A DNA stretch of 64,000 bases from a virus. Every line of letters starts with the position of its first letter. The first letter of the stretch is position 1. The translations under genes and the position numbers were made by a program. The notes beneath the pieces are model-generated. The model searched no databases. It was not told the DNA's origin and worked only from the letters and a program-made list of their open reading frames with translations. This document shows, one piece after another, positions 33,502 through 46,666 of this stretch. Location of the stretch: positions 1-64,000 of IMG/VR virus record IMGVR_UViG_3300045988_158059; one strand, 5' to 3'.

Positions 33502-33578
33502 GTTTACTGCCTCCTTAAATATACATTTCAGTAGTTACTATTTTCTTCTGTAATGATCCGCGCGACATCATTACAAAT

Positions 33579-33648
33579 ATGACACAATTGGATTCGAACC
33601 AATATTTCAGCTTAAAAAGCCACGTTCTTTCCGTTAGACTATATGTCA
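33579..33648 (-). tRNA. tRNA-Lys(UUU) candidate (weak stems)
   Basis: Reverse complement reads TGACATATAGTCTAACGGAAAGAACGTGGCTTTTTAAGCTGAAATATTGGTTCGAATCCAATTGTGTCA. Acceptor TGACATA/TGTGTCA, perfect T-arm ATTGG-TTCGAAT-CCAAT, anticodon loop TTTTTAA. The D stem and anticodon stem are poor. Confidence 0.45.
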
Positions 33649-33717
33649 TCTTTTTTTTACATGCATGACCTGTCGTACTGCAGTCACAACAGGATTATGT
33701 GTACTTATTCTTTCTCC

Positions 33718-34044
33718 TTATCCATTATAATTTTCTCCATAGATTGCGATTTCTGGTTTGCCATTTTCATCTAATACGTAATATGGTGTAATGCCACCAA
33801 TGCCACCATAACGGTCTGAACCTTGTACTACATATACAATTTTAGTGGTTTTATAATATACAAAATATTGACTATATCGACTAAACCCATTACTTGATAC
33901 GATTTGTATTTCCTTAATTTCAATAAATTGACCGAATGATTGAACTTTTTCTCCATTGTCATTTATCTCTTTGTCACCACATCCAGTAAACGAAAATGCC
34001 AATCCCGATACAAGCAATCCAATTAATAGTTTCTTAATTTTCAT
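33718..34044 (-). CDS. putative lipoprotein
   Basis: Signal peptide with FTGCGDK lipobox. Confidence 0.5.
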   Translation of the reverse strand: MKIKKLLIGLLVSGLAFSFTGCGDKEINDNGEKVQSFGQFIEIKEIQIVSSNGFSRYSQYFVYYKTTKIVYVVQGSDRYGGIGGITPYYVLDENGKPEIAIYGENYNG

Positions 34045-34084
34045 TCTGTCACCTCTCGAATCTCACATTCCATCGAATCACTTA

Positions 34085-34282
34085 TTATCCTATTAAAAAC
34101 ATCCCAGTAATAAATAATGAGAGTAATATAAACATAAGAATAAAATCACCGATAGCCAAAACAAGTCTCTTTCTATCATCAAGAATATCGAGTCTTGAAA
34201 AAGACATACCAATTGTAAAAATTAATGATAATAGTATTCCTATCAATAATGATCCTATATAAGATTTCATATCTAACCTCAC
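34085..34282 (-). CDS. small two-TM membrane protein
   Basis: 65 aa, two hydrophobic helices. Confidence 0.4.
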   Translation of the reverse strand: MRLDMKSYIGSLLIGILLSLIFTIGMSFSRLDILDDRKRLVLAIGDFILMFILLSLFITGMFLIG

Positions 34283-35058
34283 ATTTCAACAATTCTGTAT
34301 AATTGTCTATTCAGGTAATGTCCAAGTAAATAATCATTATCAAGTCCAGTTCCGTGATAAAATTCTTCCGCAATTCCACCACCTATAGCACATAACGTAT
34401 CCATGTCACACTTTAACGAAAATACATTTCGCAAGAAACTTTCATAATCATCACTTTCCAGAAAACATCTTATTGCAACAGGTACACTTCCTTGACAAAT
34501 TTCATTCCACTGATATGTCTTTCTATAGTCTTCAATTTTATATTCAACACTATATTTGTAATCATCTTTTGGATAGTATTTCTTCACATATTCATAGATT
34601 TCTGCTTTTGTAACACCTGTTCTTGCCATATAAATACACATTGCCGTTGCAACCGCCCCTTTAATTCCTTCTGGATGATTATGTGTACACTCAGCAGACT
34701 TTGTAGCCCATTCGATAACTTCTTTTTCTGTATTAAAATGTTCTCCAATATAAGAACATCTCATTGCAGATCCATTACCGCAACTTCCATATGCAGTTTC
34801 ATCATCGTATCTTAACCACGTTTCAAAATTATTTCCATATCCTGCATTTGGATATTTTCTTCCCCATTCTCTATATGAATCTGAGAAAGATTTATTATTA
34901 ATAATTGCTAATTTAGCAGCAAGTGTCATTACAGTATCATCTGTAAAATAACATCTATCAGTAAATAACTTACAATTCTTCCAATCTAAATCAATTGGTC
35001 TACCAAATTCATATTGTGAACCTGCAATATCACCTAAGATTGCACCAACGATAGCCAT
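34279..35058 (-). CDS. ADP-ribosylglycohydrolase (ARH/DraG family)
   Basis: GAILGDIAGSQYEF, FTDDTVMT, GNGSAMR and THNHPEG match the ARH motifs (GDALG, TDDT, GNG(A/S)(L/A)MR, THxHP). Confidence 0.8.
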   Translation of the reverse strand: MAIVGAILGDIAGSQYEFGRPIDLDWKNCKLFTDRCYFTDDTVMTLAAKLAIINNKSFSDSYREWGRKYPNAGYGNNFETWLRYDDETAYGSCGNGSAMRCSYIGEHFNTEKEVIEWATKSAECTHNHPEGIKGAVATAMCIYMARTGVTKAEIYEYVKKYYPKDDYKYSVEYKIEDYRKTYQWNEICQGSVPVAIRCFLESDDYESFLRNVFSLKCDMDTLCAIGGGIAEEFYHGTGLDNDYLLGHYLNRQLYRIVEM

Positions 35059-35152
35059 AATTTAATCTCCTTTATTTTAAATTATTATTTTTACGGGATT
35101 ATTTATAAGAATTTTATATCTCTCCTTTCATTTTTCTTTTAATGGAAACTCT

Positions 35153-35226
35153 GGGACTCGAACCCAGGACCGACCGGTTATGAGCCGGTTGCTCTAACCA
35201 ACTGAGCTAAGTTTCCATGTAGTGGG
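35153..35226 (-). tRNA. tRNA-Met(CAU) (elongator Met, or Ile2 if lysidine-modified)
   Basis: Reverse complement GGAAACTTAGCTCAGTTGGTTAGAGCAACCGGCTCATAACCGGTCGGTCCTGGGTTCGAGTCCCAGAGTTTCCA. All four arms canonical; anticodon CAT. Confidence 0.85.
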
Positions 35227-35358
35227 CGTTATAATTACACCCACAATATAGAAATGTAACAATATCTGTAAAAAAACTTGCTTATGCAATCGTGTCAGTT
35301 ACACGAACAATCGTCATCACTCTCAAAAGCCCTCCCACATTATTTCTACCTCACTGAC

Positions 35359-35616
35359 TCAATTACTTTTTTGCTTCATAACTAATCTACACATCTGCTT
35401 AACCAGATCATCCTCCAACTTCCCACTTACAACCTCATTAGCACAAAGCACATCTATATAAATGTTTCCTTTCGACGTATCCAAACCATACAACCAATAC
35501 ATCTGCAGCTTCCTCATCACTGGGTTCCAGTATTCCACCAACTTTTCAATCTTCTTTAATGTCCTATAGACGCTATATAATATAAAGGTCAACCTCCCGG
35601 ACTTATTTCTCCTCAT
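35359..35616 (-). CDS. hypothetical protein
   Basis: 85 aa ORF between two tRNAs. Confidence 0.3.
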   Translation of the reverse strand: MRRNKSGRLTFILYSVYRTLKKIEKLVEYWNPVMRKLQMYWLYGLDTSKGNIYIDVLCANEVVSGKLEDDLVKQMCRLVMKQKSN

Positions 35617-35658
35617 TACTATTTAGGCCATCAAGTAAATCCGTAAGAATAGTCCGAA

Positions 35659-35738
35659 TACGGATAGTGGGATTCGAACCCACACGATTTCTCCGAAGGG
35701 TTTGAGCCTTCTACGTCTGCCAGTTCCGTCATATCCGC
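35659..35738 (-). tRNA. tRNA-Leu(CAA), type II (long variable arm)
   Basis: Reverse complement GCGGATATGACGGAACTGGCAGACGTAGAAGGCTCAAACCCTTCGGAGAAATCGTGTGGGTTCGAATCCCACTATCCGTA. 3-bp D stem, anticodon stem GAAGG/CCTTC with loop CTCAAAC, ~13 nt variable arm, T-arm GTGGG-TTCGAAT-CCCAC. Confidence 0.75.
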
Positions 35739-35905
35739 TTATTGTATAAGGTTACTACCGGCTTACCCTTATACAGTTTATTTATACTCGTAAGACCTGC
35801 TTCAAACGAGTTATAAGAGGTAAAAAGTAAAATGAAAGCCACATGCTTATAACCGAACTTCCACATATCTAAAGTTTTTATTCATCGGAATGTTTAATTA
35901 AATTT

Positions 35906-37024
35906 TTATACAGAAAGATTATAATGAAGTCCCTTTTCTTCTTTTCTTGCAAAAACGATACGATCAATTTTAATATTTTCGTATTTTTTCTTTTCTTCTT
36001 TTGTAAGATCCGCATAGTCTTCATCCGGAATAATTTCAACATCTTTTCCATCAACAAAATCAATGTGTCTGTCAAAATCATATCTTACATCAACACCAGA
36101 AAATTTTGTATAGAACCATTTTCCATCTATTGTAAAATATAAACTATGATTAGAAGTCTTATCAAACAAGTCAAGAGTTTTTTCTTCTGTATCTTTTTTA
36201 CCATCTTTAGTATACAAAGTAGCTATATAAACAGTATTATTTATATGAAGGATATTCATATCTTTAATTGCCTCTTGAAATTGTAATCCTGTATTAAGCT
36301 CAAATGCGATAGCTCTTAAACAATCATAATTTAAGCTGACTCTTTTAGAAAATGCAATTACCTTACTAATTTCTCCATAATACTCTTTATGTAACTTGTC
36401 TCTCATATATTCTGTGATTTCAGAATCTGTCGGATAATCAAATCTAAAATGATAATGAAATCTTCCAGGTCTATTTACCAAATAATCACTCAGAGTATTA
36501 AGATTATTACAAGTAATAACATATAACTTTTTCCCTTGAGCTAATCCATCAAATAATGTAAGCAGCTCTGTTTGTGGATTAGCCATACCATCAGCAGCTT
36601 TAATATTACCAAATGTTTTATCAAACTCATCAAACATTACTAATACTTCCTGTTCAATTTCTTCAATAAAATTAGCAATTCCAGGGATATATGTATCAAC
36701 AATAATTACTGGTAATCCTTTTTTTACAGCTTCTACAGCAAGAATCTTAGAAAATAAAGATTTGCCAATTCCTTTGGCTCCAGATAAGATCACGCCAAGA
36801 TTTTTATTGAAATTTGGAAAAGCATTTAATACTTTATTTACTTTTTCCATGTGCACACCGTATATTTTATCTTCATTGATCTCAATATCAGCATGTTTCT
36901 CTAAATAAAATCCTGTCATCTGTGAACATCTGATAGAATAAATTTGTGCCGGAAGTTGATTATGTGTTACAAGATCATCTCCGTAGATTCTAAAAGTGGA
37001 ACCTGTACTAATAATTTTACTCAT
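35906..37024 (-). CDS. AAA+ ATPase
   Basis: ILSGAKGIGKS Walker A, VLVMFDEFDK Walker B, VNRPGRF sensor 2 / Arg finger. Confidence 0.65.
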   Translation of the reverse strand: MSKIISTGSTFRIYGDDLVTHNQLPAQIYSIRCSQMTGFYLEKHADIEINEDKIYGVHMEKVNKVLNAFPNFNKNLGVILSGAKGIGKSLFSKILAVEAVKKGLPVIIVDTYIPGIANFIEEIEQEVLVMFDEFDKTFGNIKAADGMANPQTELLTLFDGLAQGKKLYVITCNNLNTLSDYLVNRPGRFHYHFRFDYPTDSEITEYMRDKLHKEYYGEISKVIAFSKRVSLNYDCLRAIAFELNTGLQFQEAIKDMNILHINNTVYIATLYTKDGKKDTEEKTLDLFDKTSNHSLYFTIDGKWFYTKFSGVDVRYDFDRHIDFVDGKDVEIIPDEDYADLTKEEKKKYENIKIDRIVFARKEEKGLHYNLSV

Positions 37025-37103
37025 TTTTATCTCCTTTTTGTATAATTAAATTATATTTCTCTGCAATTCGGCTGGAGTATATTTGTATAAAATACTTGCC
37101 AAA

Positions 37104-37188
37104 CGGCGGTAGTGGGATTCGAACCCACACGAGCTACTGCTCAATAGAGTCAAAGTCTATTATGTCTAGCCAATTTCATCATACCGCT
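37104..37188 (-). tRNA. atypical tRNA with long variable arm and apparent UUG anticodon
   Basis: Reverse complement AGCGGTATGATGAAATTGGCTAGACATAATAGACTTTGACTCTATTGAGCAGTAGCTCGTGTGGGTTCGAATCCCACTACCGCCG. A1:C72 mismatch, 3-bp D stem, anticodon stem ATAGA/TCTAT with loop CTTTGAC, ~15 nt variable stem-loop GAGC-AGTA-GCTC, perfect T-arm. Confidence 0.55.
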
Positions 37189-37285
37189 ACATTCATTGTT
37201 TGTATAATTAAATTTCTTTCTTCTTTTTATTTAGCACAGGGAGCTTTCACTCCTCTGTGCTGTTGTCATCCTTGACTATGTATTT

Positions 37286-37322: not shown

Positions 37323-37337
37323 GTTAATTTAATTTGT
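37323..37337 (-). promoter_or_regulatory. conserved intergenic motif, AGTTAATTTAATTTG class (representative instance)
   Basis: The same 19-nt variant AGTTAATTTAATTTGTTTT recurs at 18452, 18513, 37322 and 47408. Confidence 0.5.
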
Positions 37338-37850
37338 TTTGTTGATTTTGCTTATATAATATGAATTTGCACGTTTCTCAATCAATTTCGCAATTAATCT
37401 TCGCTCTGCCAGTTCCCTACCAAACTTATAATCAAATTGATCTCCTGCTTCAATATTACAAGAAGCCATAGCTTTTACACCGTCGAATTCTACCTGCACT
37501 CTCTTACCATTAGTTCTAACATTATATACTAATAGTTTTTCTCTACGAGAAAATGGATCCATAAAAAAAGTGTAACCTTCTTTCCAGTCTCCCCATTTGT
37601 ACTTAGGTTTTATTTCTTTATCTAATTTATTAACATGTTCTTGTGTAACAAGAACCGGCACATTGTTTGTAATGTTATTCTCTTTGCATAATGACTTATA
37701 TTTTTCTGCTCCAAGATTAACATCAATTGATTTATATGTACCATCTTTAAGTTTTAAAACTATTAATAATGTCCCATCTGGACAAAAAATCCCAATATTA
37801 ATACTGTCTACTTCATATTTATATTTTTCTCCAAATAATGTAAATCCCAT
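37329..37850 (-). CDS. hypothetical protein
   Basis: 173 aa ORF. Confidence 0.4.
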   Translation of the reverse strand: MGFTLFGEKYKYEVDSINIGIFCPDGTLLIVLKLKDGTYKSIDVNLGAEKYKSLCKENNITNNVPVLVTQEHVNKLDKEIKPKYKWGDWKEGYTFFMDPFSRREKLLVYNVRTNGKRVQVEFDGVKAMASCNIEAGDQFDYKFGRELAERRLIAKLIEKRANSYYISKINKTN

Positions 37851-37964
37851 AATTTTTCTCCTTTATTTCTTTAATTTAATTTTTGTAACCAGAATACCTG
37901 CCAGAAAAGCAATAACAAGGCATACAACAAATGTTTCTATATTTAAAGCAACCATAATTACTCC

Positions 37965-39311
37965 TTACTCAATGATCTTAAATGATACATCAGTACGTCT
38001 ATTCATTGCGCGATGTTCATCAGTGTCATTATCAACAACAGGATTGCTGGATCCATTTCCAACTACTACAATACGTCCGTTAGAAATTCCATTCATAACA
38101 AAATAGTTTTTAACAGCTTCTGCTCTTTGTAAAGACAACTTCTGATTATACTCGTCTTCAGGATCTGATTCCGGATTAGGGTCTGTATTTCCTGCAATTT
38201 CAATGATTGCACCGTCAAGTACCTTTGCAATGTCAATAAACTTATTAAGTTCTTTAGATGCTGCAGCAGAATCAGAGAATTTTGCCGTATTCTGAATAAA
38301 TGTAACAGATGCTTTACCCTGTAATAAAGCTTCAGTATCCTGAATTTCCTTTTTATTATCCTCTGTAACCTTTACAGTATTTGTATTAGACACTTTCGTT
38401 GCACTAAATTTATCTGAAATAGCATTAATATATGTATCATCAAAAATACTATTAACAAGATCAGCATTTACAGACTCACCAATTGATGTCCATACGTTAC
38501 ACATATCTGAATAAATTGTCTTTGCAGTTCCATTTAACAGATCTAAATTATCTTTCCATGTTGTCAGTTTTGCAGACTCTGTATTTGCTACAATATCTTC
38601 ATCTGATGCAGTATTGAACATAGGCATTACTTCACGGATTGCATTAAATTCTGTATTATACATATCTGCAGCTTCCAGAGATCCCTGGATAAATTTCTCC
38701 ACTACATCTGCATGTGCTTCTGCAAATTTCTTATCAAACAGAATTCCATCCATAACAAGATTTGAAGAACTTGCAGTGCTAAATAATACATGTGCGTCTG
38801 TCATATTCTTTGCCTGAGTCAGGTATGGTTCCCAGGTTGCTGCAACATCAATCTGACCGGCAAAAAATGCTTTTGCTGCATCATCTGGTGTTGAGAACAA
38901 TACAAGATTATCAATAATCTTTGCTTTGGCTTTATTAGAAAGATCAGAATTATTTACAAACCATACTACAAGTGTTTGAGCTTCAGAGAATTCTGGTACA
39001 CCAATTTTAGCATTTACAAGATCATTTACATTCTGAATAGAAGACTTCGCAATAATACCGTCACCACCATTTGAGTAATTTGTAATATACGGCATCACCA
39101 CTTCTTTTCCGGCATCAGTGAATTTCTTAGATAAGAATGCAGTTCTGTTGATTGTATAACCTGCAGCGTTCAGATCTCCTTTAATCAGAGCATTACTTGA
39201 TTGTGTTGCGTCGTTAATAACATTAATATTTACTTTTACGCCAAGTTTATCATAGATGGAACCTGACTGAGTTGTTAAGCCGCCATTAGCGTCAATAATG
39301 GATTTCCACAT
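37965..39311 (-). CDS. ABC-transporter substrate-binding domain (SsuA/NMT1-like) fused to a C-terminal OmpA-like domain; 3' portion of a split gene
   Basis: GVKVNINVINDATQSSNALIKGDLNAAG and IDVAATWEPY resemble the SsuA/TauA/NMT1 family. The C-terminus LSLQRAEAVKNYF...NRRTDVSF is OmpA/MotB-like. No signal peptide, and the first beta-strand of the binding fold is missing. Confidence 0.55.
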   Translation of the reverse strand: MWKSIIDANGGLTTQSGSIYDKLGVKVNINVINDATQSSNALIKGDLNAAGYTINRTAFLSKKFTDAGKEVVMPYITNYSNGGDGIIAKSSIQNVNDLVNAKIGVPEFSEAQTLVVWFVNNSDLSNKAKAKIIDNLVLFSTPDDAAKAFFAGQIDVAATWEPYLTQAKNMTDAHVLFSTASSSNLVMDGILFDKKFAEAHADVVEKFIQGSLEAADMYNTEFNAIREVMPMFNTASDEDIVANTESAKLTTWKDNLDLLNGTAKTIYSDMCNVWTSIGESVNADLVNSIFDDTYINAISDKFSATKVSNTNTVKVTEDNKKEIQDTEALLQGKASVTFIQNTAKFSDSAAASKELNKFIDIAKVLDGAIIEIAGNTDPNPESDPEDEYNQKLSLQRAEAVKNYFVMNGISNGRIVVVGNGSSNPVVDNDTDEHRAMNRRTDVSFKIIE

Positions 39312-39313
39312 TA

Positions 39314-40162
39314 CTATTGATTCAGTTCGTTACGCTGAACTGTTGATTTCCGTATAGGATATTTTATATTTGGATTATGCCAACTGCCACCATTATTAAT
39401 TCTATAAATCTGAGTAACAGCTCGACCATATAATTTAGCAATATACTTCATAGGAATGCTAGGATCTTCTAACAATTTAATAATTTCTTCTAATTCATCA
39501 TGAGTTAATCCTAATTCTCTGATAGGATATTCATCGTTTTCATCATAATATGTAACACCTTTATTAATGTTTAAAATTACATATCTTTCTACTTTAAACA
39601 TTCTAGCAATATAGTCTATACTATAAAAGCCATCTCGTAACATTTTTTTGATTAATTTAATTTTTTCATGATTTATAGATGGACATATTAAAGGTTCTCT
39701 GATAGGATAAGTGATATCATTTTTTCTCCAAGCTATTCCGGTATTAACATTTCGAATAGTTTTTATTGATACATTATACTTTTCGGCAAGCTTATCAAAT
39801 TCAACGTTCGTTTCTTTTAAATCTTTCATCAATAAATCAACCTGCTGTTGTGTTAACTTACTTTGCGGATTATTTTCTCCAGAACTATCTTGCCCACCAT
39901 TTTGAATATTATATCCGAACTCTTTCTCATTACTGCGATATAATTTAATATATTCCTTTTCTTTTGTATTATAATCTTCTCCGAAATATAATGTTTCTAC
40001 CGAAAAATTTTCCCATCCATATTTATGTATTGCATTATAGATAGGATGATTCATGCGTTTATCATGCCGATGCTCTTTAATACGTCTTTCTAAATTATTA
40101 GTTTGTCCTATATAAATCTTATGATTTATGTTATTCTCTATTTTGTATACATATTTCTCCAA
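39314..40162 (-). CDS. GIY-YIG homing endonuclease
   Basis: KYVYKIENNINHKIYIGQTNNLERRIKEH is the GIY-(10)-YIG...R...E/H motif, followed by C-terminal DNA-binding repeats. TTG start with an AGGAGAA ribosome-binding site. Confidence 0.85.
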   Translation of the reverse strand: MEKYVYKIENNINHKIYIGQTNNLERRIKEHRHDKRMNHPIYNAIHKYGWENFSVETLYFGEDYNTKEKEYIKLYRSNEKEFGYNIQNGGQDSSGENNPQSKLTQQQVDLLMKDLKETNVEFDKLAEKYNVSIKTIRNVNTGIAWRKNDITYPIREPLICPSINHEKIKLIKKMLRDGFYSIDYIARMFKVERYVILNINKGVTYYDENDEYPIRELGLTHDELEEIIKLLEDPSIPMKYIAKLYGRAVTQIYRINNGGSWHNPNIKYPIRKSTVQRNELNQ

Positions 40163-40543
40163 TTCTTTATATTCTCCTTACACGTTACAACACTATATTT
40201 TTCAATATAGATTAGAGTACATCACCATCTTTTATAAGATGCGCCTCCACTGGCTTTAACGAATTTAAAAGCTCTTACTCGTTGAACCTTATCCTGTTCG
40301 GATTTTGGAAGCTGATTCCCCATTCTTACAGCACTTAGCACCTTCTCATATTTCAATGAAAAAGCTTTTATTTCAGCTTATGCCATCTTACTAATTTTTT
40401 CTGCTTTCGCCACATTCACACTTATGCGTATTTCATCATTATGTTGTAGTTTAGTAAGCTTTAGGGTGGCTACGTGTATAGCCTTAATTCCAGCAATTCA
40501 AAGGCGTTCGATCACATTGTCACCAATGTAAAAGGGCTAGAAA

Positions 40544-40831
40544 TTAACCAATCCATTCATCTAATGACACATTAATAACATTATCATCAGCAGTTTTCGC
40601 TTCATCTTTCTTTACAGTGTTTTTCTTGTCATCATCCTCATTATTTGAAGTAGATTCTGTTTTAGCGACTGTTTCTGATGTAGTAGTACCGGATACTGAT
40701 TTATCTTTCTTCGTCTGAATCATTCCAGTCTGTGTTCCTGCAAAGATACCTCCTCCAAGCAGTGCTACAATCAGAACCATAATCAGAATTTTTGCTGCTT
40801 TAGTTAATCTAAATCTTTTTGCTTTCTTCAT
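40544..40831 (-). CDS. signal-anchor plus Ser/Thr/Asp-rich linker; likely 5' exon or N-terminal fragment of the split substrate-binding-protein gene
   Basis: Basic N-terminus, TM helix, low-complexity linker, ending VINVSLDEWIG. That ending resembles the missing first beta-strand (RLGYFPNIT in SsuA-type proteins). Confidence 0.45.
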   Translation of the reverse strand: MKKAKRFRLTKAAKILIMVLIVALLGGGIFAGTQTGMIQTKKDKSVSGTTTSETVAKTESTSNNEDDDKKNTVKKDEAKTADDNVINVSLDEWIG

Positions 40832-40842
40832 TTTACTACTCC

Positions 40843-41580
40843 TTATTTATTATATTTCTTTTTCAAGCTGTTCAGATAATCATTGCTGTTATTCTTTTTT
40901 GCTTCCGCTTCAGCCTTTTCAAGTTTGGTAGACATCTTATTATTGTGTACTACTTTAGATCCTTCCACAATAGCATCCAGATCTCTGTTTTTATCTCGAA
41001 CAGAATCAAGCAATTTATCTGTTGCCGTGACATTTTTCAGTTCATCCATATCATCATAGACTTCCTGAAGCTGCTTCTTTACCTTCATATTCTCCACAAC
41101 TTCTTTACTTTCACGCTTTAGACTTCTAAGATTCTTTTCACACCTTTCCTGTGTCTCTTTTGCAGCGGCCGTAGCTTCTTTATAGGCATTTACCAAACCG
41201 GTAACTCTGCGAATATCTGAAAGAATCTCTTCTCTTTCCTCTGCCTTTAACTGTGCAAGCTCGATCTGATTAGTTTTAACCAGAGATTCACACTCTGCTT
41301 CAACATTAACAAGTCGCTTTCTTTTTCTATCAAGATCTTTCTGCGCATTGCTCAGTTTTCCAGCAGCAATCTTATATGCATTATCCGCTTTATTATAAGA
41401 TTCCTGAGCCTGGTCAATTTTTTCTTCGTAGATAGCCTCTGCTCCTTCTGGTGTGGTTGCCATATCTTTGATAAATAATCTAGTAAATCCAGACAGTAAT
41501 TTTCTTGCTTCCGGAAACAGAATCAGTATCAATACAATAACAACCACTACAACAATAAAAATCAGTTTACCAAGTTCCAT
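40843..41580 (-). CDS. membrane-anchored coiled-coil protein (PspA/IM30-like?)
   Basis: N-terminal poly-Val/Ile TM helix, then ~200 aa of charged coiled coil. Confidence 0.35.
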   Translation of the reverse strand: MELGKLIFIVVVVVIVLILILFPEARKLLSGFTRLFIKDMATTPEGAEAIYEEKIDQAQESYNKADNAYKIAAGKLSNAQKDLDRKRKRLVNVEAECESLVKTNQIELAQLKAEEREEILSDIRRVTGLVNAYKEATAAAKETQERCEKNLRSLKRESKEVVENMKVKKQLQEVYDDMDELKNVTATDKLLDSVRDKNRDLDAIVEGSKVVHNNKMSTKLEKAEAEAKKNNSNDYLNSLKKKYNK

Positions 41581-42113
41581 TATGCATTTCCTCCAACAGT
41601 AAAGTTAATTAAATTTTTAATTCTGTCAATTTCAGCAGTAATAGTTTCATCAGATGTTTTTGTTTCAGCTCTTTGATCAGCAATTTCCTTTTCCAGACGC
41701 TCGATTTCCATTTTGTGTTCTTCAATAGCATTTTCTTTTTCAGTAACAACAGCTTCAGAATCACAAATAATCTTTGAGAGAATGTCGCTTAAAACATCAA
41801 CTCTTTTTTCTCCGTCTGCCTCAACATCAGTCACTGTCAAGCCAAATACACCAAGTGTTGCCAACACTGAATTTCTTTTTGTTTCTGTCGTCATTTCCTT
41901 TGGAAATGATTTTATTAACTCCTCCACTTTAAAAATTGACTGTGTTTTATCTGCCAGATTATTCTGGCTGTAAATATCATCAATCAAAGTGTCAGTGTTA
42001 ACTGAATCAAGCTCTGCGTTGGTCTCGGTTGTATCAAAATCAGTATCTATGTCTGGAATATCAGGCGTCTCATCCGGTACTTCTTCCACAAATAAGTTTT
42101 TTAAAATTCCCAT
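41580..42113 (-). CDS. hypothetical acidic protein
   Basis: 177 aa; D/E/T-rich N-terminus. Confidence 0.35.
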   Translation of the reverse strand: MGILKNLFVEEVPDETPDIPDIDTDFDTTETNAELDSVNTDTLIDDIYSQNNLADKTQSIFKVEELIKSFPKEMTTETKRNSVLATLGVFGLTVTDVEADGEKRVDVLSDILSKIICDSEAVVTEKENAIEEHKMEIERLEKEIADQRAETKTSDETITAEIDRIKNLINFTVGGNA

Positions 42114-42125
42114 AGTATTTCCTTC

Positions 42126-42737
42126 CTAAAATTTCAATATTTCATCACACATTATCTTTGCTTCTGATTCACTGTGTGTGACCATGATCACAGTATTATC
42201 AAGTAACATATGCAAATCCATAATTAACAATTGCATATTACTTCGTGTCTCAGCATCCAGCGCTGACAACGGTTCATCCATTAAAAGAATCTTTGGTTTT
42301 GCAAATAACGTCCTTGCTAACGCAAGTCGCTGTTTCATGCCTCCAGATAACTGCTTAGGATATTTATTTTCGTTTCCATTCAAACCAACTAAATAAAGCA
42401 TCTTCTTAGCTGCTTCTATATCTTCTGGTTCTATATGGCCTTTAACTTTTTTAGCAATTAGTATATTGTCAAGACAATTTAACCAATCAAAAGAAGTATA
42501 GTTCTGATGCATCATATATACTTCATTTTTACTTGCTTTTGTAACCGGATTATTATCTATTATAATTTCTCCAGATAACGGTTTGATTAATCCTGCAACA
42601 GTCCTTAACAAAGTTGTCTTGCCGCATCCAGATTCTCCAAGGATCCCGTAGATCTTATTATCAAAATTATAATTAAACCCAGATAAAAGTGGTTTATCTC
42701 TGCTGTATCCTGTGTATAAATCATGAATTTCAATCAT
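42126..42737 (-). CDS. ABC transporter ATP-binding protein
   Basis: GESGCGKTT Walker A, LSGGMKQRLALAR signature, LLMDEPLSALD Walker B, H-loop. Confidence 0.85.
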   Translation of the reverse strand: MIEIHDLYTGYSRDKPLLSGFNYNFDNKIYGILGESGCGKTTLLRTVAGLIKPLSGEIIIDNNPVTKASKNEVYMMHQNYTSFDWLNCLDNILIAKKVKGHIEPEDIEAAKKMLYLVGLNGNENKYPKQLSGGMKQRLALARTLFAKPKILLMDEPLSALDAETRSNMQLLIMDLHMLLDNTVIMVTHSESEAKIMCDEILKF

Positions 42738-43476
42738 TTATATACCTCCACTTAAAAATTTTCCTTACTAACCATTTAGATACATAATCAAATATAACAC
42801 TGATGATCATAATCACAATGATTGCCATAAATACTAAATCTGTTCTTCCTCTGGAAGATGATTGCTGGATTATATATCCAAGTCCATATTGAGCATTTAT
42901 TGTTTCAGCTACTGCAATATATGTAAATCCAATTCCATACATCATAATGTAGCTATTCAATACTCCTGGCAATGATGCCGGAATCTGGATTCTCCATATC
43001 GTTTGTAATTTGCTCATTCCAATTGTAAGTCCAGTATCTATTAGATCGTTGTTTACTTCCTCCAGGCATAATACAACTGACGGCATCATATATACGAATG
43101 TTGCGATAAACAAAAATACAATTTTCATCATTTCATCTATCCCAAACCACATAATAAGCAATGGATAAAATGCAGTCACCGGAATATATCGCATAACACT
43201 GATTATCGGATTAAGAATATCCTTAGCAATTCTGGAATTATAAACCAGAATCGCTATAGGAAATGCTATTGCTCCAGATATAAATGTAGCAGCAGTTATT
43301 CTTAGAAACGAATATTCAATTGCCTTAATCAACTGTCCGGTATGTATCATGCCTATCAGATCATCAAATACCGTAACTGGCTCCGGAACGAACAAGGGAT
43401 TTACGTGTTTTGCTGTGATATTCCAAATAAGGAGTATCGAAGCAAGTAAAAGAATTCTTTTTGTAAATGTTTTCAT
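42730..43476 (-). CDS. ABC transporter permease (SsuC/TauC-type inner-membrane component)
   Basis: Six hydrophobic segments and an EAA-like loop. Overlaps the ATPase gene by 8 nt. Confidence 0.7.
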   Translation of the reverse strand: MKTFTKRILLLASILLIWNITAKHVNPLFVPEPVTVFDDLIGMIHTGQLIKAIEYSFLRITAATFISGAIAFPIAILVYNSRIAKDILNPIISVMRYIPVTAFYPLLIMWFGIDEMMKIVFLFIATFVYMMPSVVLCLEEVNNDLIDTGLTIGMSKLQTIWRIQIPASLPGVLNSYIMMYGIGFTYIAVAETINAQYGLGYIIQQSSSRGRTDLVFMAIIVIMIISVIFDYVSKWLVRKIFKWRYIND

Positions 43477-43486
43477 TTTATTTCCC

Positions 43487-43660
43487 TTAAAGAATATGGC
43501 GTAAAATATTATACAAAGCTTCTAATTTTCCGGTTTCCTCGTATATAGCTTCTACAATTACAGCTAATACCGCAGCACATATAAAACACAAAATTAGTAG
43601 TAAAATCAATATCACAATCACCATAAACAGAAATGCCGCAATATCTCCGAGTATTCCCAT
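43487..43660 (-). CDS. small membrane protein (57 aa) upstream of the ABC permease
   Basis: Hand-translated MGILGDIAAFLFMVIVILILLLILCFICAAVLAVIV... GAGGAG ribosome-binding site. Confidence 0.4.
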   Translation of the reverse strand: MGILGDIAAFLFMVIVILILLLILCFICAAVLAVIVEAIYEETGKLEALYNILRHIL

Positions 43661-44071: not shown

Positions 44072-44566
44072 TTATTTAACAAACATCCAGTCTTCTGCGA
44101 GCATATCCGACTGGGTAGCAAGCCATCCCATCTGTACGCCAGATGTTCCAACAAAAGCGATGGCTTTATTTCCGATTGCGTCATGCTCACAATTTACAAT
44201 CTCATTATCGGCAGTCTTATAAGAAATCCCAGTGGCAAGCTGAATGTACTGTTTCTTTCCATTCCAGCCTTTACGTGCCACTTTAAATCCTCTTTTCAGG
44301 TACTTAATCGCTTCTCCGAATGAGAATGTTGCTTCTCCACCAAGTATTGGGCAGTTCCGACTATCCGCATAAACCCACTCATCGGAAAGAATATTCTGAA
44401 GCGTATACTCCACATTCTGTGTTTCTCTTATATCCAGACAGCCGCCATCTTTTGTGTACATAAGGATTGTCTGGGATTCTTCATCCCACCACCAATAACC
44501 CGCCCATGACGGAAGTTTTACTGGAATTCCAGATTTCATTTCTTCAAATGCTTCTTTAAATTTCAT
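44072..44566 (-). CDS. tandem DUF2829 protein (Tad2-like)
   Basis: Two repeats. The second, FSFGEAIKYLKRGFKVARKGWNGKKQYIQL...WLATQSDMLAEDWMFV, matches the DUF2829 pattern as I recall it (..GEAL.ALK.GKKV.RKGWNG...SQ.D.LAEDWE.V). The first, MKFKEAFEEMKSG...LQNILSDEWVYA, is more diverged. Confidence 0.65.
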   Translation of the reverse strand: MKFKEAFEEMKSGIPVKLPSWAGYWWWDEESQTILMYTKDGGCLDIRETQNVEYTLQNILSDEWVYADSRNCPILGGEATFSFGEAIKYLKRGFKVARKGWNGKKQYIQLATGISYKTADNEIVNCEHDAIGNKAIAFVGTSGVQMGWLATQSDMLAEDWMFVK

Positions 44567-44599: not shown

Positions 44600-46666
44600 T
44601 TAGAATTTGATTTTTAATACTCGCTCTGTAGCACCCTTTACCTTAATAATCAAATCATTTCTCTTTGTAAGGGAGAATCCTACTCCAGAAAGCTGATCAT
44701 CAATATCTTTTACATGTGCCTTCGCTCCAAGCGCTTCAAATACTCTTCGATGCTGCTCAAGTTCCGGTTTCAAGAATTCATTATAATATCCATTCGGCTC
44801 TTCTGGATTGATGCAGTCCTTCAGCATAAAGAATAAGTGCTGATGACCAATTCCCTTCTGTTCATCCCAGTAATTTGGTGAGTAGCATACAACAGATACC
44901 GGTGTAAACTGCAGAGTTTTAATTCCCCATACATCTTTACTGATCATAGAACAATTTCCTGGAAGTTTGTCCACAATTTTGAAATTACCTGCCTGATCAA
45001 GAATTACTTCTGCAACATCTACATCGCCACGTACTGGAGTATTATATTCATAAGAATGAATTTCTCCATTTACTTCGATTTCGGCTTTAAATCCCTGAGA
45101 TCCTCTGTATGCGAACTGATTTACAAAAAACTTATATGTACCAGGAATCATGCGTTCTTTAGATGGAAATGTAATATTTTCAACGGCAACTCCATTACTA
45201 TTCCAGCACTGATCAACTGGCTGAGTAATATCAATATCCAATTCTCCACCGGATCGTGCTTTTTTGTGACCAAAATAAATATGCTCTCCACGTTTTGGTT
45301 CAATACAATGTGCGTCAAGGTCAGAATTATCTTTTCCATCTTTGTCATTCCATTGAATAGAAAATCTTACAATGCCTGTGACTGAACCACCAGCAGCTTT
45401 TACATTTTCTTTGATATCTGAATCTGTAATATTACCGGTATACGCCCAAGACATTCCATTGTTCCATTTGAACATTGTTTTCGCATCAGCAACTTCTGGA
45501 GCAATCAAAGATACCATATTTTGAATATGTTTATTCTCCAGGTATACTTCCAGTTCCTTTGCCACTGGCAAAACATTCTTAATAAAATCTTCTGCACTTA
45601 TTTCCTCTACCTTAGAGAATCGTTTTGGATCAATTGCAACATCCTGTTCCATTTCATCAAACAAATCCATAGCGCCGGTAATTCTCTTTGCTGCGTCTTT
45701 ATTAGAGAAAAGTATATTGTTCACTGTGATATCATCCAAGGTAGCAAATCTTCTCTGTAATGAATCCATATAACCAAGTTCTGTAATAGTCTTCTTTGCA
45801 TTTTCAAGCATCTTCTTTGTAAAAATTGCCTTTGGACGTTTATAATTTACAGGGGCTACAATCTGCTCATATTTTCTAACGGCAAGGTCAAGATCCATTC
45901 CTTCGGAAATATTCACCAGCAATGTTCCTATGCTATGGTTACGAATCTTACCGATAACGGCACCTGCAGAAATTGACTTTTCCCAGATCCAAAGTTCTTT
46001 CTGTTTATCCGTAAGCTTTCCATATTCTTTCTGATAATTCTTAAATTCAGTAAGTTGCTTTTTCCATTCGGCACCTTTATATAAAGAATTTTGAGCAATC
46101 AGTTCAAGTACAGTATCTACAGCTTCTTTACTAATTTCATCAAGAGAACGTTTAAATACATTACGGACATCTCTGAATTGACTTAAATCACCTTCAAGTG
46201 TATGTCCATAACATTCCTTAAAGATACAAATTTCTGGCAGATCTACGAAGAAATGCTCGTATTTATTAATTTTTCCTGTCGGGAGCATTTCTCTATTTTC
46301 ATGAGTACCAATTCGTTTCTCTTTTTTGAGGAATACCCCTGATACCGCTTTCTGTTTTACATAGGCATCAAGCGCAGCTGCGACTACATTATATTTATCA
46401 TCTGATACTGGATTAATTCCCCAAATGGTATGTAACTCACCATTTTTAATAGATACAACGTTACCAACGTCTCTGATAAAATGTCTACAGCAACTGCAGT
46501 CATATTCTCTTCTTTCTCTGTAAATTTCATTTGTACCTGCCGGAAACGAATCCAGATATAAATTATAAAGCTCCTCGGTGTCCACATTTACTGTGAATAA
46601 TCTTGAAGAATCTTTAGACATCTGCTGTAAATTTTTCTGGATTGCCTTTACAAAATCTCTAAACAT
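44600..46666 (-). CDS. hypothetical large protein (688 aa)
   Basis: Long ORF with no recognisable catalytic motif. Confidence 0.45.
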   Translation of the reverse strand: MFRDFVKAIQKNLQQMSKDSSRLFTVNVDTEELYNLYLDSFPAGTNEIYRERREYDCSCCRHFIRDVGNVVSIKNGELHTIWGINPVSDDKYNVVAAALDAYVKQKAVSGVFLKKEKRIGTHENREMLPTGKINKYEHFFVDLPEICIFKECYGHTLEGDLSQFRDVRNVFKRSLDEISKEAVDTVLELIAQNSLYKGAEWKKQLTEFKNYQKEYGKLTDKQKELWIWEKSISAGAVIGKIRNHSIGTLLVNISEGMDLDLAVRKYEQIVAPVNYKRPKAIFTKKMLENAKKTITELGYMDSLQRRFATLDDITVNNILFSNKDAAKRITGAMDLFDEMEQDVAIDPKRFSKVEEISAEDFIKNVLPVAKELEVYLENKHIQNMVSLIAPEVADAKTMFKWNNGMSWAYTGNITDSDIKENVKAAGGSVTGIVRFSIQWNDKDGKDNSDLDAHCIEPKRGEHIYFGHKKARSGGELDIDITQPVDQCWNSNGVAVENITFPSKERMIPGTYKFFVNQFAYRGSQGFKAEIEVNGEIHSYEYNTPVRGDVDVAEVILDQAGNFKIVDKLPGNCSMISKDVWGIKTLQFTPVSVVCYSPNYWDEQKGIGHQHLFFMLKDCINPEEPNGYYNEFLKPELEQHRRVFEALGAKAHVKDIDDQLSGVGFSLTKRNDLIIKVKGATERVLKIKF

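Follow-up and report, generated by a model that had tools for sequence, protein, structure and literature searches.

The 64,000-nucleotide (nt) stretch of viral DNA analyzed here (IMG/VR record IMGVR_UViG_3300045988_158059, positions 1 to 64,000), referred to as a whole as the window, carries at positions 37965 to 43660 an ATP-binding cassette (ABC) transporter gene cluster in which genes for a permease, an ATPase and a solute-binding protein (SBP) are interspersed with genes for an acidic protein and a predicted membrane-anchored PspA/IM30-like protein. According to the list of open reading frames (ORFs), all genes in and around this interval lie on the minus strand. In order of transcription they are a micro-ORF of 57 amino acids (aa), the permease, the ATPase, the acidic protein, the PspA-like protein, exon 1 of the binding protein, an intron with an endonuclease gene, exon 2 of the binding protein, and a 30-aa micro-ORF. 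Consecutive module genes are spaced by −8 to +12 nt and, because they overlap or lie no more than 12 nt apart, they probably form a single operon. A promoter and terminator scan of the module returned nothing above background. The GC content of the interval, 0.33–0.35, is the same as that of the rest of the window.

The original prediction, made from the sequence alone, treated this interval as a four-part importer consisting of a permease, an ATPase, a binding protein and a micro-ORF. The three transporter components are real, but a plain importer of four genes does not describe the interval. The acidic and PspA-like genes and a GIY-YIG endonuclease gene also lie inside it. The cluster is better described as a tightly packed, probably co-transcribed five-gene envelope module, comprising the permease, the ABC ATPase, the acidic coiled-coil protein, the transmembrane (TM)-anchored PspA-like protein and the binding protein.

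Transporter genes

The permease gene (42730–43476, minus strand) encodes a TauC/SsuC-like protein of 248 aa that matches BPD_transp_1 (PF00528; 82.7 bits against a cut-off of 26.4, E = 3.7e-23) and has an EAA-like loop, DTGLTIGMSKLQTIWRIQIP, at residue 147. Its NCBIfam matches to TauC (2.4e-32) and SsuC (4.7e-23) are both under the curated cut-offs. The ATPase gene (42126–42737, minus strand; 203 aa) overlaps the permease gene by 8 nt and matches ABC_tran (PF00005; 103.4 bits, E = 2e-29). The Walker A motif is found at residue 34, the Q-loop at 78, LSGG at 130, Walker B at 150, the D-loop (SALD) at 158 and the H-loop at 188. The protein is a minimal nucleotide-binding domain that lacks a C-terminal regulatory domain, and its family is placed by PHROGs in the category “moron, auxiliary metabolic gene.”

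Most of the binding protein is encoded by exon 2 (37965–39308, minus strand), which specifies an NMT1/SsuA/TauA-type solute-binding domain (PF09084; 24.6 bits against a cut-off of 20.5, E = 2.7e-5), then roughly 40 linker residues and, lastly, an OmpA-like peptidoglycan-binding domain (about 37998–38300; PF00691, 63.6 bits against 27.2, E = 2.2e-17). The peptidoglycan-contacting residues of OmpA-like domains have been assigned from OmpA and Pal structures. At residue 468 of the spliced protein the motif reads GNTD...LSLQRA; its Arg never varies among family members, whereas its Asp does in some relatives. The fusion of a binding protein to an OmpA/MotB-like domain that had been proposed for this locus is therefore present in one product, and tethering to the wall is plausible because the domain carries the canonical GNTD...LSxxRA motif.

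By these matches the permease, ATPase and binding protein are assigned to the NitT/TauT family of type I importers, and the proposal of a complete Tau/Ssu/NMT1-type importer gene set holds, with every component intact and all motifs present. The alternative suggestion that the transporter had been repurposed for signal export finds no support, because BPD_transp_1 is an importer fold. In common with TauABC and SsuABC, the window proteins have the permease fold and EAA loop, the nucleotide-binding motifs, and the same binding-domain family. When the binding-protein family profile was compared with PDB sequences, TauA (6ssy, 2.1e-9) and SsuA (2x26, 2.3e-8) were recovered, together with OmpA-like domains at values down to 5e-21. 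TauA and SsuA, along with Thi5 and PqqT, were also the best Foldseek matches of an AlphaFold2 model of low confidence (pLDDT 59.9; shallow alignment). Unlike TauA and SsuA, the window binding protein has an additional TM anchor, long linker and OmpA-like domain, and the ATPase lacks a C-terminal extension.

No substrate can be assigned to the transporter. The solved structures related to the binding protein are only 13–16% identical to it, and the AlphaFold2 model is too poor to permit a ligand-pocket analysis. Against equivalog-level NCBIfam models all three proteins score far under the cut-offs: the binding protein reaches 65.3 of 163.5 bits with SsuA_fam (TIGR01728, 5e-18) and 33.4 of 304 bits with the taurine SBP model, the permease 112.4 of 342 bits with TauC and 81.9 of 347 bits with SsuC, and the ATPase 149 of 357 bits with the TauB-type model. 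The cargoes put forward previously, a thiamin pyrimidine or other vitamin precursor, a nicotinamide-type compound linked to NAD, or a sulfonate, are thus neither supported nor excluded by the sequences. The cleft motifs ANGG, ND, SxGxDxI, T207, DG and EP do not vary among four phage lineages, which suggests that the binding protein has a conserved ligand.

An exhaustive search with the binding protein recovered 833 cluster representatives at E ≤ 1e-10. Over 100 of them are proteins of about 500–560 aa that match both domains at 25–50% identity; nearly all of these are metagenomic. Bacillus phage G and many other relatives carry two binding-protein/OmpA paralogs. In one such pair (locus L018, 4064–9356) one paralog carries a lipoprotein signal (..SMCAGC..), its counterpart carries a TM anchor, and acidic C-terminal tails occur there on both the ATPase and a TM-helical protein. 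The two-paralog arrangement is also found in locus L001 (7998–11203).

The PspA-like protein and its acidic partner

Two conserved genes that do not encode transporter components are situated between the ATPase and binding-protein genes. The second of these (40843–41580, minus strand) begins with a start codon that overlaps the stop codon of the acidic gene upstream (ATGA) and encodes a 245-aa protein with a match to PspA_IM30 (PF04012) at 21.8 bits, compared with a gathering score of 33.9 (E = 1.6e-4, profile positions 13–217 of 220). Eight of ten diverse family members match PF04012 over nearly the whole profile, the best at 7.8e-11. The AlphaFold2 model (pLDDT 76.8, exceeding 90 over about residues 50–160) has a TM helix at residues 3–21 followed by a helical hairpin (44–102/106–230). 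In Foldseek searches of the PDB, Vipp1 (6zvr and 8qbs) and PspA (4whe; root mean square deviation 1.8 Å over 114 columns) rank first, at E values of only 0.04–0.08. A comparison of the family profile with PDB sequences returned no PspA or Vipp1 chain, only coiled-coil noise.

Given the PF04012 matches of eight of the ten members, the helical hairpin, and Vipp1 and PspA as the top folds, we identify the 245-aa protein as a probable membrane-anchored PspA/IM30-like ESCRT-III-superfamily member. It shares with PspA, Vipp1 (IM30) and LiaH a full-length PF04012 match in most family members and the long alpha-helical hairpin. It differs in that residues 1–32 form a hydrophobic TM segment in place of the usual amphipathic helix alpha0, in that PspBC, PspF or LiaI-type partners are absent, and in that the gene is phage-encoded and located inside a transporter operon. 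The TM segment is a variant feature also described for TM-Snf7 proteins (PMC11237479).

The first of the two genes (41580–42113, minus strand) encodes an acidic protein of 177 aa, predicted to be cytoplasmic, with 42 Asp and Glu compared with 18 Lys and Arg residues. The family alignment defines an N-terminal motif, MG(F/I)LKxxxVEE, a conserved core, SIFKVEELIxSxPKEMxTxTKRxSV, and a C-terminal coiled coil. It belongs to no family in Pfam, PHROG, NCBIfam or PDB, and hhalign detected no relation between it and the PspA-like family. The acidic family profile does match an ORF adjoining the PspA gene in the GC-rich locus L116 (6.4e-12), as well as positionally equivalent ORFs in the GC-rich locus L115, the Lak-B4 megaphage and the phage LR756501 (9e-4 to 5e-3). 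By conservation and position, the acidic and PspA-like genes appear to be integral to the module.

Distribution and conservation

The original prediction had regarded a complete importer of this kind as unusual in a virulent phage genome and had proposed to check its presence and absence across related phages. The cluster is not peculiar to this genome and recurs, in a syntenic arrangement, in huge phages. Among 71 IMG/VR loci with enough upstream DNA, the PspA-like gene is present in 71, the ATPase gene in 70, the permease gene in 69, and the acidic gene is detectable in 65; nearly all of the loci have the order permease, ATPase, acidic protein, PspA-like protein, binding protein. Close relatives are found on contigs of 255–774 kb. 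The same gene order is found in gp243–gp250 of Bacillus phage G, with 41–50% aa identity in four core proteins and 30% in the acidic protein; phage G differs in having two binding-protein paralogs and an extra 137-aa gene, and in lacking the intron. The GenBank record of phage G (JN638751) labels the corresponding products “ABC-like transporter permease,” “ABC transporter” and “OmpA/MotB domain,” and leaves gp247 (PspA-like) and gp246 (acidic) unannotated. A megablast search of GenBank phages with the region gave no match, and searches of a literature library turned up no description of the module in phages.

All five genes are under purifying selection. Relative to the close relative L003, the ratios of nonsynonymous to synonymous substitution rates (dN/dS) span 0.03–0.20, with 0.03 for the PspA-like gene, 0.06 each for the acidic gene and the binding-protein exons, 0.15 for the permease and 0.20 for the ATPase. 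Relative to more distant relatives, the proportion of nonsynonymous differences (pN) is well under that of synonymous differences (pS).

In species-representative genomes, scanned with patterns that reach close relatives only, relatives of the module were confined to contigs of Lachnospiraceae/Clostridia metagenome-assembled genomes and two isolate assemblies, and for this reason we suggest that the window derives from a huge phage infecting Clostridia. The two isolates are Acetatifactor muris DSM 23669 (L012) and Lacrimispora amygdalina (L015); the module-bearing contigs in these assemblies hint at a carrier state or a culturable host.

Two other arrangements were found. The first (loci L018–L029) consists of a binding protein, permease, ATPase, an unrelated helical protein with two TM segments, and a second binding protein; no similarity between its 234-aa TM protein and the window proteins was detected with hhalign or family profiles. 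The second arrangement is found in Prevotella Lak megaphages (Lak-B4) and in the 735-kb phage LR756501, where an acidic-type protein, a TM coiled-coil protein, an SBP-OmpA fusion, a permease and an ATPase follow one another in that order. These TM coiled-coil proteins have no PF04012 match and the hhalign probabilities are 7% and 44%, so that homology of the TM coiled-coil and acidic-type proteins to those of the window is only suggestive.

A predicted group I intron in the binding-protein gene

The original prediction placed the binding protein in the ORF at 37965–39311 (448 aa). The domains that it described there are real, but this ORF consists of exon 2 and three intron bases only, and the true N-terminus lies beyond a 1,238-nt intron in the 95-aa ORF at 40544–40831. 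Exon 1 (40547–40831, minus strand) encodes a signal-anchor TM helix (hydrophobic residues 7–38), a low-complexity linker of about 60 aa, and a first beta-strand ending in ..NVINVSLDEWIG. The two reading frames join between ..DEWIG and WKSII.. to give a 542-aa protein. This product aligns in one piece with gp249 of phage G (residues 5–538, 48% identity) and, over the full length, with more than 50 uninterrupted metagenomic proteins of 527–548 aa at 87–95% identity. The match of exon 2 to PHROG 25518 begins only at profile position 78.

The insertion (39309–40546, minus strand) was mapped exactly by DNA alignment with the intron-less allele of L003, which is 96% identical in exon 2. The last bases are ..GGU in the 5′ exon and ..AAUG, with a terminal G, in the intron, and the homing site, GATGAATGGATTGGT^TGGAAATCC, is conserved. 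A guide, UUUCUAGCC, within the first 12 intron bases pairs with the last three bases of exon 1, including a U.G wobble at the splice site (P1), and with bases 1–6 of exon 2 (P10).

Two further intron lineages occupy the same codon in IMG/VR contigs whose binding-protein genes are 80% and 69% identical to that of the window. Their cores are about 76% identical to the window core, and their endonucleases are 57% and 54% identical. An alignment of the three lineages contains 83 base pairs that are 97.6% paired, 34 of them with compensatory changes on both sides. This covariation comes from a sample of only three intron lineages; none of 500 shuffles reached as high a value, and sliding the pairing partners by 1–3 columns left 0–2 such pairs. 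In P7 a G-C to C-G swap has occurred among the lineages, the window pairing GAGUA/UACUC corresponding to GACUA/UAGUC in the consensus. The near-identical intron copies in L009 and L011 show no covariation.

Against the Rfam group I model (RF00028, gathering score 50 bits), the sister introns score 41.9 bits (E = 1.8e-9) and 47.4 bits (E = 4.1e-11), covering the full model but falling under the gathering score. The window intron scores 19 bits (E = 0.013) when its 421-nt core is searched alone; Rfam returned no intron match at the gathering threshold in a search of the whole window, nor at E ≤ 10 in a search of positions 39100–40900.

From Rfam alignments of the sister introns and RNAalifold, the catalytic core was assigned to about 40193–40546 (minus strand throughout). 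Its helices are P1 (40549–45/40539–35), P2 (40531–24/40519–12), P3 (40506–499/40249–42), P4 (40494–90/about 40315–11), an extension of P5 (40483–40330), P6 (40303–291), P7 (40280–76/40219–15), P8 (40241–26) and P9 (40210–193, with a GAAA loop), in addition to a P10 of up to 6 bp with exon 2. An initial hand-made assignment of P3 (AAAGCU/AGCUUU) and of P4–P6 is superseded by this one.

The endonuclease ORF (39314–40162, minus strand; 282 aa, TTG start) is located 3′ of the core; it starts 3′ of P9 and ends 5 nt short of the 3′ splice site, and about 380 nt without an ORF separate it from the exon 1 ORF. Its product contains a GIY-YIG domain (PF01541; 33.8 bits against a cut-off of 22.6, E = 4.1e-8) and C-terminal helix-turn-helix DNA-binding modules (PF02796, 3.4e-11). 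The start position is kept as TTG, ATG or GTG in diverged introns. The intron and endonuclease are present in 11 of the 71 related loci and absent from near-identical phages (L003–L005, 96% nucleotide identity).

The intron-less alleles, the three lineages with 34 covarying pairs and the near-threshold Rfam scores together lead us to predict with high confidence that the sequence separating the two binding-protein exons is a mobile group I intron, which encodes a GIY-YIG homing endonuclease. In the predicted gene structure, splicing is needed to connect the membrane anchor with the remainder of the binding protein; without it, exon 2 would be translated, if at all, as a product that has neither membrane anchor nor export signal. 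The intron is well supported and lies in an unusual host gene, one for an extracytoplasmic binding protein. Annotation based on ORFs only truncates this binding-protein family and loses its membrane anchor.

Phage group I introns with GIY-YIG endonucleases include those of T4 td (I-TevI) and nrdD (sunY; I-TevII). Features common to these and the window intron are the U.G pair at the 5′ splice site, the terminal G, the P1–P10 guide, the P3–P9 core, P2 and P9 helices capped by GNRA loops, an endonuclease ORF that lies outside this core, presence or absence among close relatives, and insertion in a highly conserved codon stretch. In contrast to the T4 introns, the window intron interrupts a gene for an extracytoplasmic solute-binding protein rather than one for nucleotide metabolism, replication or structure, and the RF00028 score of the window copy reaches no more than 19 bits.

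Synonymous divergence (dS) from L003 varies across 37329–43476: it is 0.04–0.06 for the permease and ATPase, rises to 0.17–0.23 for the acidic protein, the PspA-like protein and the binding protein, and is 0.02 for the gene that follows. This unevenness suggests mosaic recombination in the module, which could possibly be linked to intron homing.

Relationship to bacterial PspA/Snf7 operons

Operons in which PspA/Snf7 proteins are linked to ABC transporter and PBP-OmpA genes are known from bacteria, in the description of Ravi et al. (2024, mSystems, PMC11237479) from computational work only; an example is OGG56892.1 of Candidatus Handelsmanbacteria (section 18, Text S2.2 and Table S3 of that paper). 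A link between membrane remodeling and solute transport was proposed by the same authors (PMC11237479), whose operon scheme includes the acidic partner as an unnamed “X.” The window module has in common with the published operon an ABC ATPase, a permease, an SBP-OmpA fusion and a membrane-anchored ESCRT-III-superfamily protein (PMC11237479). Whereas the bacterial operon, as described there, contains a soluble PspA and a TM-Snf7, the phage module has a single PspA-like protein that is itself TM-anchored (PMC11237479). The order of the genes and the location in a phage genome are also different, while the two are alike in being known as computationally predicted gene sets.

The GC-rich contig L116, whose binding protein is a distant relative of that of the window (27% identity), has the order AAA+AAA, PspA, 209-aa acidic protein, SBP-OmpA, permease, ATPase and TM-helical protein. 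Its PspA is matched by the window family profile at 4.6e-12. As L116 carries the published type of operon with matching PspA and acidic proteins, the window cluster is a compact, phage-borne variant of that operon type without the AAA+ ATPase (PMC11237479), a form that appears to be new. In L115 (599–1783), another GC-rich locus with the module, an ammonium transporter and a nucleoside deoxyribosyltransferase/NUDIX protein are encoded near the SBP-OmpA, permease and ATPase genes.

Possible functions of the module

Starting from the intact parts, the selection on them, their near-invariant linkage, the homology to the bacterial operon type and the intron, we tentatively favor a coupled module in which PspA-linked uptake is combined with maintenance of the envelope. 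The spliced binding protein would be located outside the cytoplasmic membrane, attached to both membrane and peptidoglycan, and could there capture a small solute of the TauA/SsuA/NrtA-type range, to be passed to a permease dimer powered by an ATPase dimer. The PspA-like protein would be kept permanently at the cytoplasmic face of the membrane by its TM helix and, together with the acidic partner, could polymerize and stabilize or reshape the membrane at that site. The net effect would be a host membrane that remains sealed, energized and provisioned while a very large phage completes its long infection cycle.

Several observations weigh against this reading. A coupling of transporter and PspA-like protein, whether physical or functional, is drawn from gene linkage alone, and in phages and bacteria alike the module is known from sequence analysis. 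The window PspA-like protein is under the Pfam gathering threshold, its family profile finds no PspA or Vipp1 among PDB sequences, and its Foldseek E values are weak. The loci L018–L029, with their different arrangement, carry another TM-helical protein without detectable similarity, and in Lak-B4 and LR756501 homology to the PspA-like and acidic proteins is weak (top local profile hits at E values of 4e-5 to 5e-3 in tiny databases, hhalign probabilities of 7–44%). The cluster in L002 (human fecal scaffold MT835556, 1469–5528) keeps the permease, acidic, PspA-like and binding-protein genes and has no ATPase gene, while L008 (6886–9584) has lost the genes for the ATPase and the acidic protein, along with the part of the PspA-like gene for the N-terminal half. 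The double AAA+ ATPase of the bacterial operon, with one inactive and one active domain in the published description (PMC11237479), has no counterpart in the phage module. Finally, the binding protein has no assigned ligand and is represented by the poor AlphaFold2 model described above.

The simplest alternative, and the view of the original prediction, is a plain auxiliary metabolic importer that takes up a nutrient or vitamin precursor and has the PspA-like and acidic genes as unrelated neighbors. The importer-type permease fold, the intact ATPase motifs, the SsuA/TauA/NMT1-family binding domain and the PHROGs category of the ATPase all agree with this idea. We nevertheless consider it improbable that the importer stands alone, since the PspA-like gene is inserted between the ATPase and binding-protein genes with junctions that overlap or span 11–12 nt, co-occurs with the transporter in all 71 loci and in phage G, and appears with the acidic partner even in a GC-rich operon that is only distantly related. 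None of the substrate-specific models attains its cut-off score, and the binding protein is doubly tethered, to membrane and wall, which to our knowledge is not a feature of ordinary nutrient importers. A more drastic alternative is that the locus is recently captured host DNA in decay, with the split binding-protein gene as a disrupted pseudogene. In a plain ORF reading, a stop codon and 1.2 kb of foreign DNA do indeed interrupt this gene. The exact group I boundaries, the 34 covarying pairs and the sister-intron Rfam scores of up to 47.4 bits account for the interruption, however, and a dN/dS of 0.06 in the exons, purifying selection throughout the module, a GC content like that of the rest of the window, and synteny extending as far as phage G make decay a very improbable explanation. 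The pseudogenized host capture that the original prediction had named as its own refutation was thus not what we found.

A less readily dismissed, if still unlikely, alternative is that the module acts as a sensor or regulator and not as a net importer; the wall-tethered binding protein and ABC core would then detect either a solute or the condition of the envelope, and ATP hydrolysis would control assembly of the PspA-like polymer. It is possible that such a device serves to resist membrane-attacking abortive-infection effectors or premature holin damage, or to time lysis. The constant linkage of the transporter, PspA-like and acidic genes fits this scheme, as do the bare nucleotide-binding domain of the ATPase, the conserved short N-terminal motif and coiled coil of the acidic partner, which suit protein-protein contacts, and the presence of an anti-defense gene (Tad2-like) nearby. 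Protection of membranes is an established role of PspA (PMC11237479; PMC8281802). On the other side, the module contains no regulator or effector domain, and PADLOC gave only generic MotB-domain and ABC-ATPase matches, so that the module is not a known defense system. Moreover, BPD_transp_1 transporters are known as true importers, and we know of no signaling precedent for this subfamily.

A bolder extension, which we regard as speculative and improbable at present, is that the huge phages of Firmicutes and Bacteroidetes carry an ESCRT-III-type machine, composed of the TM-anchored PspA-like protein with its acidic partner, an ABC motor and a wall-tethered receptor, that actively remodels or repairs the host membrane. 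Its uses could include the neutralization of membrane-puncturing abortive-infection effectors, the building or upkeep of an infection-specific membrane structure, or the gating of lysis. If true, it would be the viral counterpart of the use of ESCRT by eukaryotic and archaeal viruses. If, as in the coupled module that we favor, the gene linkage is functional, the largest phages would deliver to their hosts an ESCRT-III-superfamily protein that protects or remodels membranes, along with a dedicated transporter, a new layer of host takeover. The syntenic genes gp243–gp250 of Bacillus phage G, which grows on B. megaterium, would offer a culturable system for PspA/ABC/PBP-OmpA operons that have so far been bioinformatic.

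Micro-ORFs and neighboring genes

The module is flanked by two predicted single-pass membrane micro-ORFs. The 57-aa micro-ORF (43487–43660, minus strand), recognized by its hydrophobic segment, ends 10 nt upstream of the permease gene and has no Pfam or PHROG match. The original prediction counted it as a part of the importer; it exists, but it is present only in the closest relatives (15 of the 71 loci), and is lineage-specific and outside the conserved core. Its dN/dS relative to L003, 0.30, rests on few changes. The 30-aa micro-ORF (37863–37955, minus strand) follows the binding-protein gene after 9 nt. Gene calling recovers it in L003–L008, with identities of 100% in L003 and 50% in L006, and was detected by tblastn in 21 of the 71 loci, being kept in the nearer relatives.

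Two genes upstream of the module, at 44072–44566 (minus strand), is a gene for a 164-aa Tad2-like protein (Thoeris anti-defense; PF11195, 8.3e-24). It is 6 nt upstream of a 133-aa gene that adjoins the module and is 99% identical in L003. A 688-aa protein with an ortholog annotated as DUF8224 is encoded at 44600–46666 (minus strand) and has no Pfam match; its gene is upstream of the module here and directly downstream of it in L006 and L007, a position that is variable but close to the module.

Downstream of the module, about 0.8 kb beyond the p173 gene and past a tRNA gene, is a gene (35906–37024, minus strand) for a 372-aa single-domain AAA/nSTAND3-like ATPase (PF00004, 3e-9; PHROG 2376). 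It was considered as a Vps4-like partner of the PspA-like protein and ruled out, because it is not conserved next to the module: only the closest relatives (13 of the 71 loci) have it nearby, and it is absent from the vicinity of the module in L006 and L007. Four tRNA genes (Lys-UUU, Met-CAU, Leu-CAA and Gln-UUG) are dispersed among protein genes at 33578–37189 (minus strand), just downstream of the module. The gene at 34279–35058 (minus strand) encodes a protein of the ADP-ribosylglycohydrolase family (PF03747, 2.1e-28), which is probably part of the “NAD theme” to which the original prediction referred.

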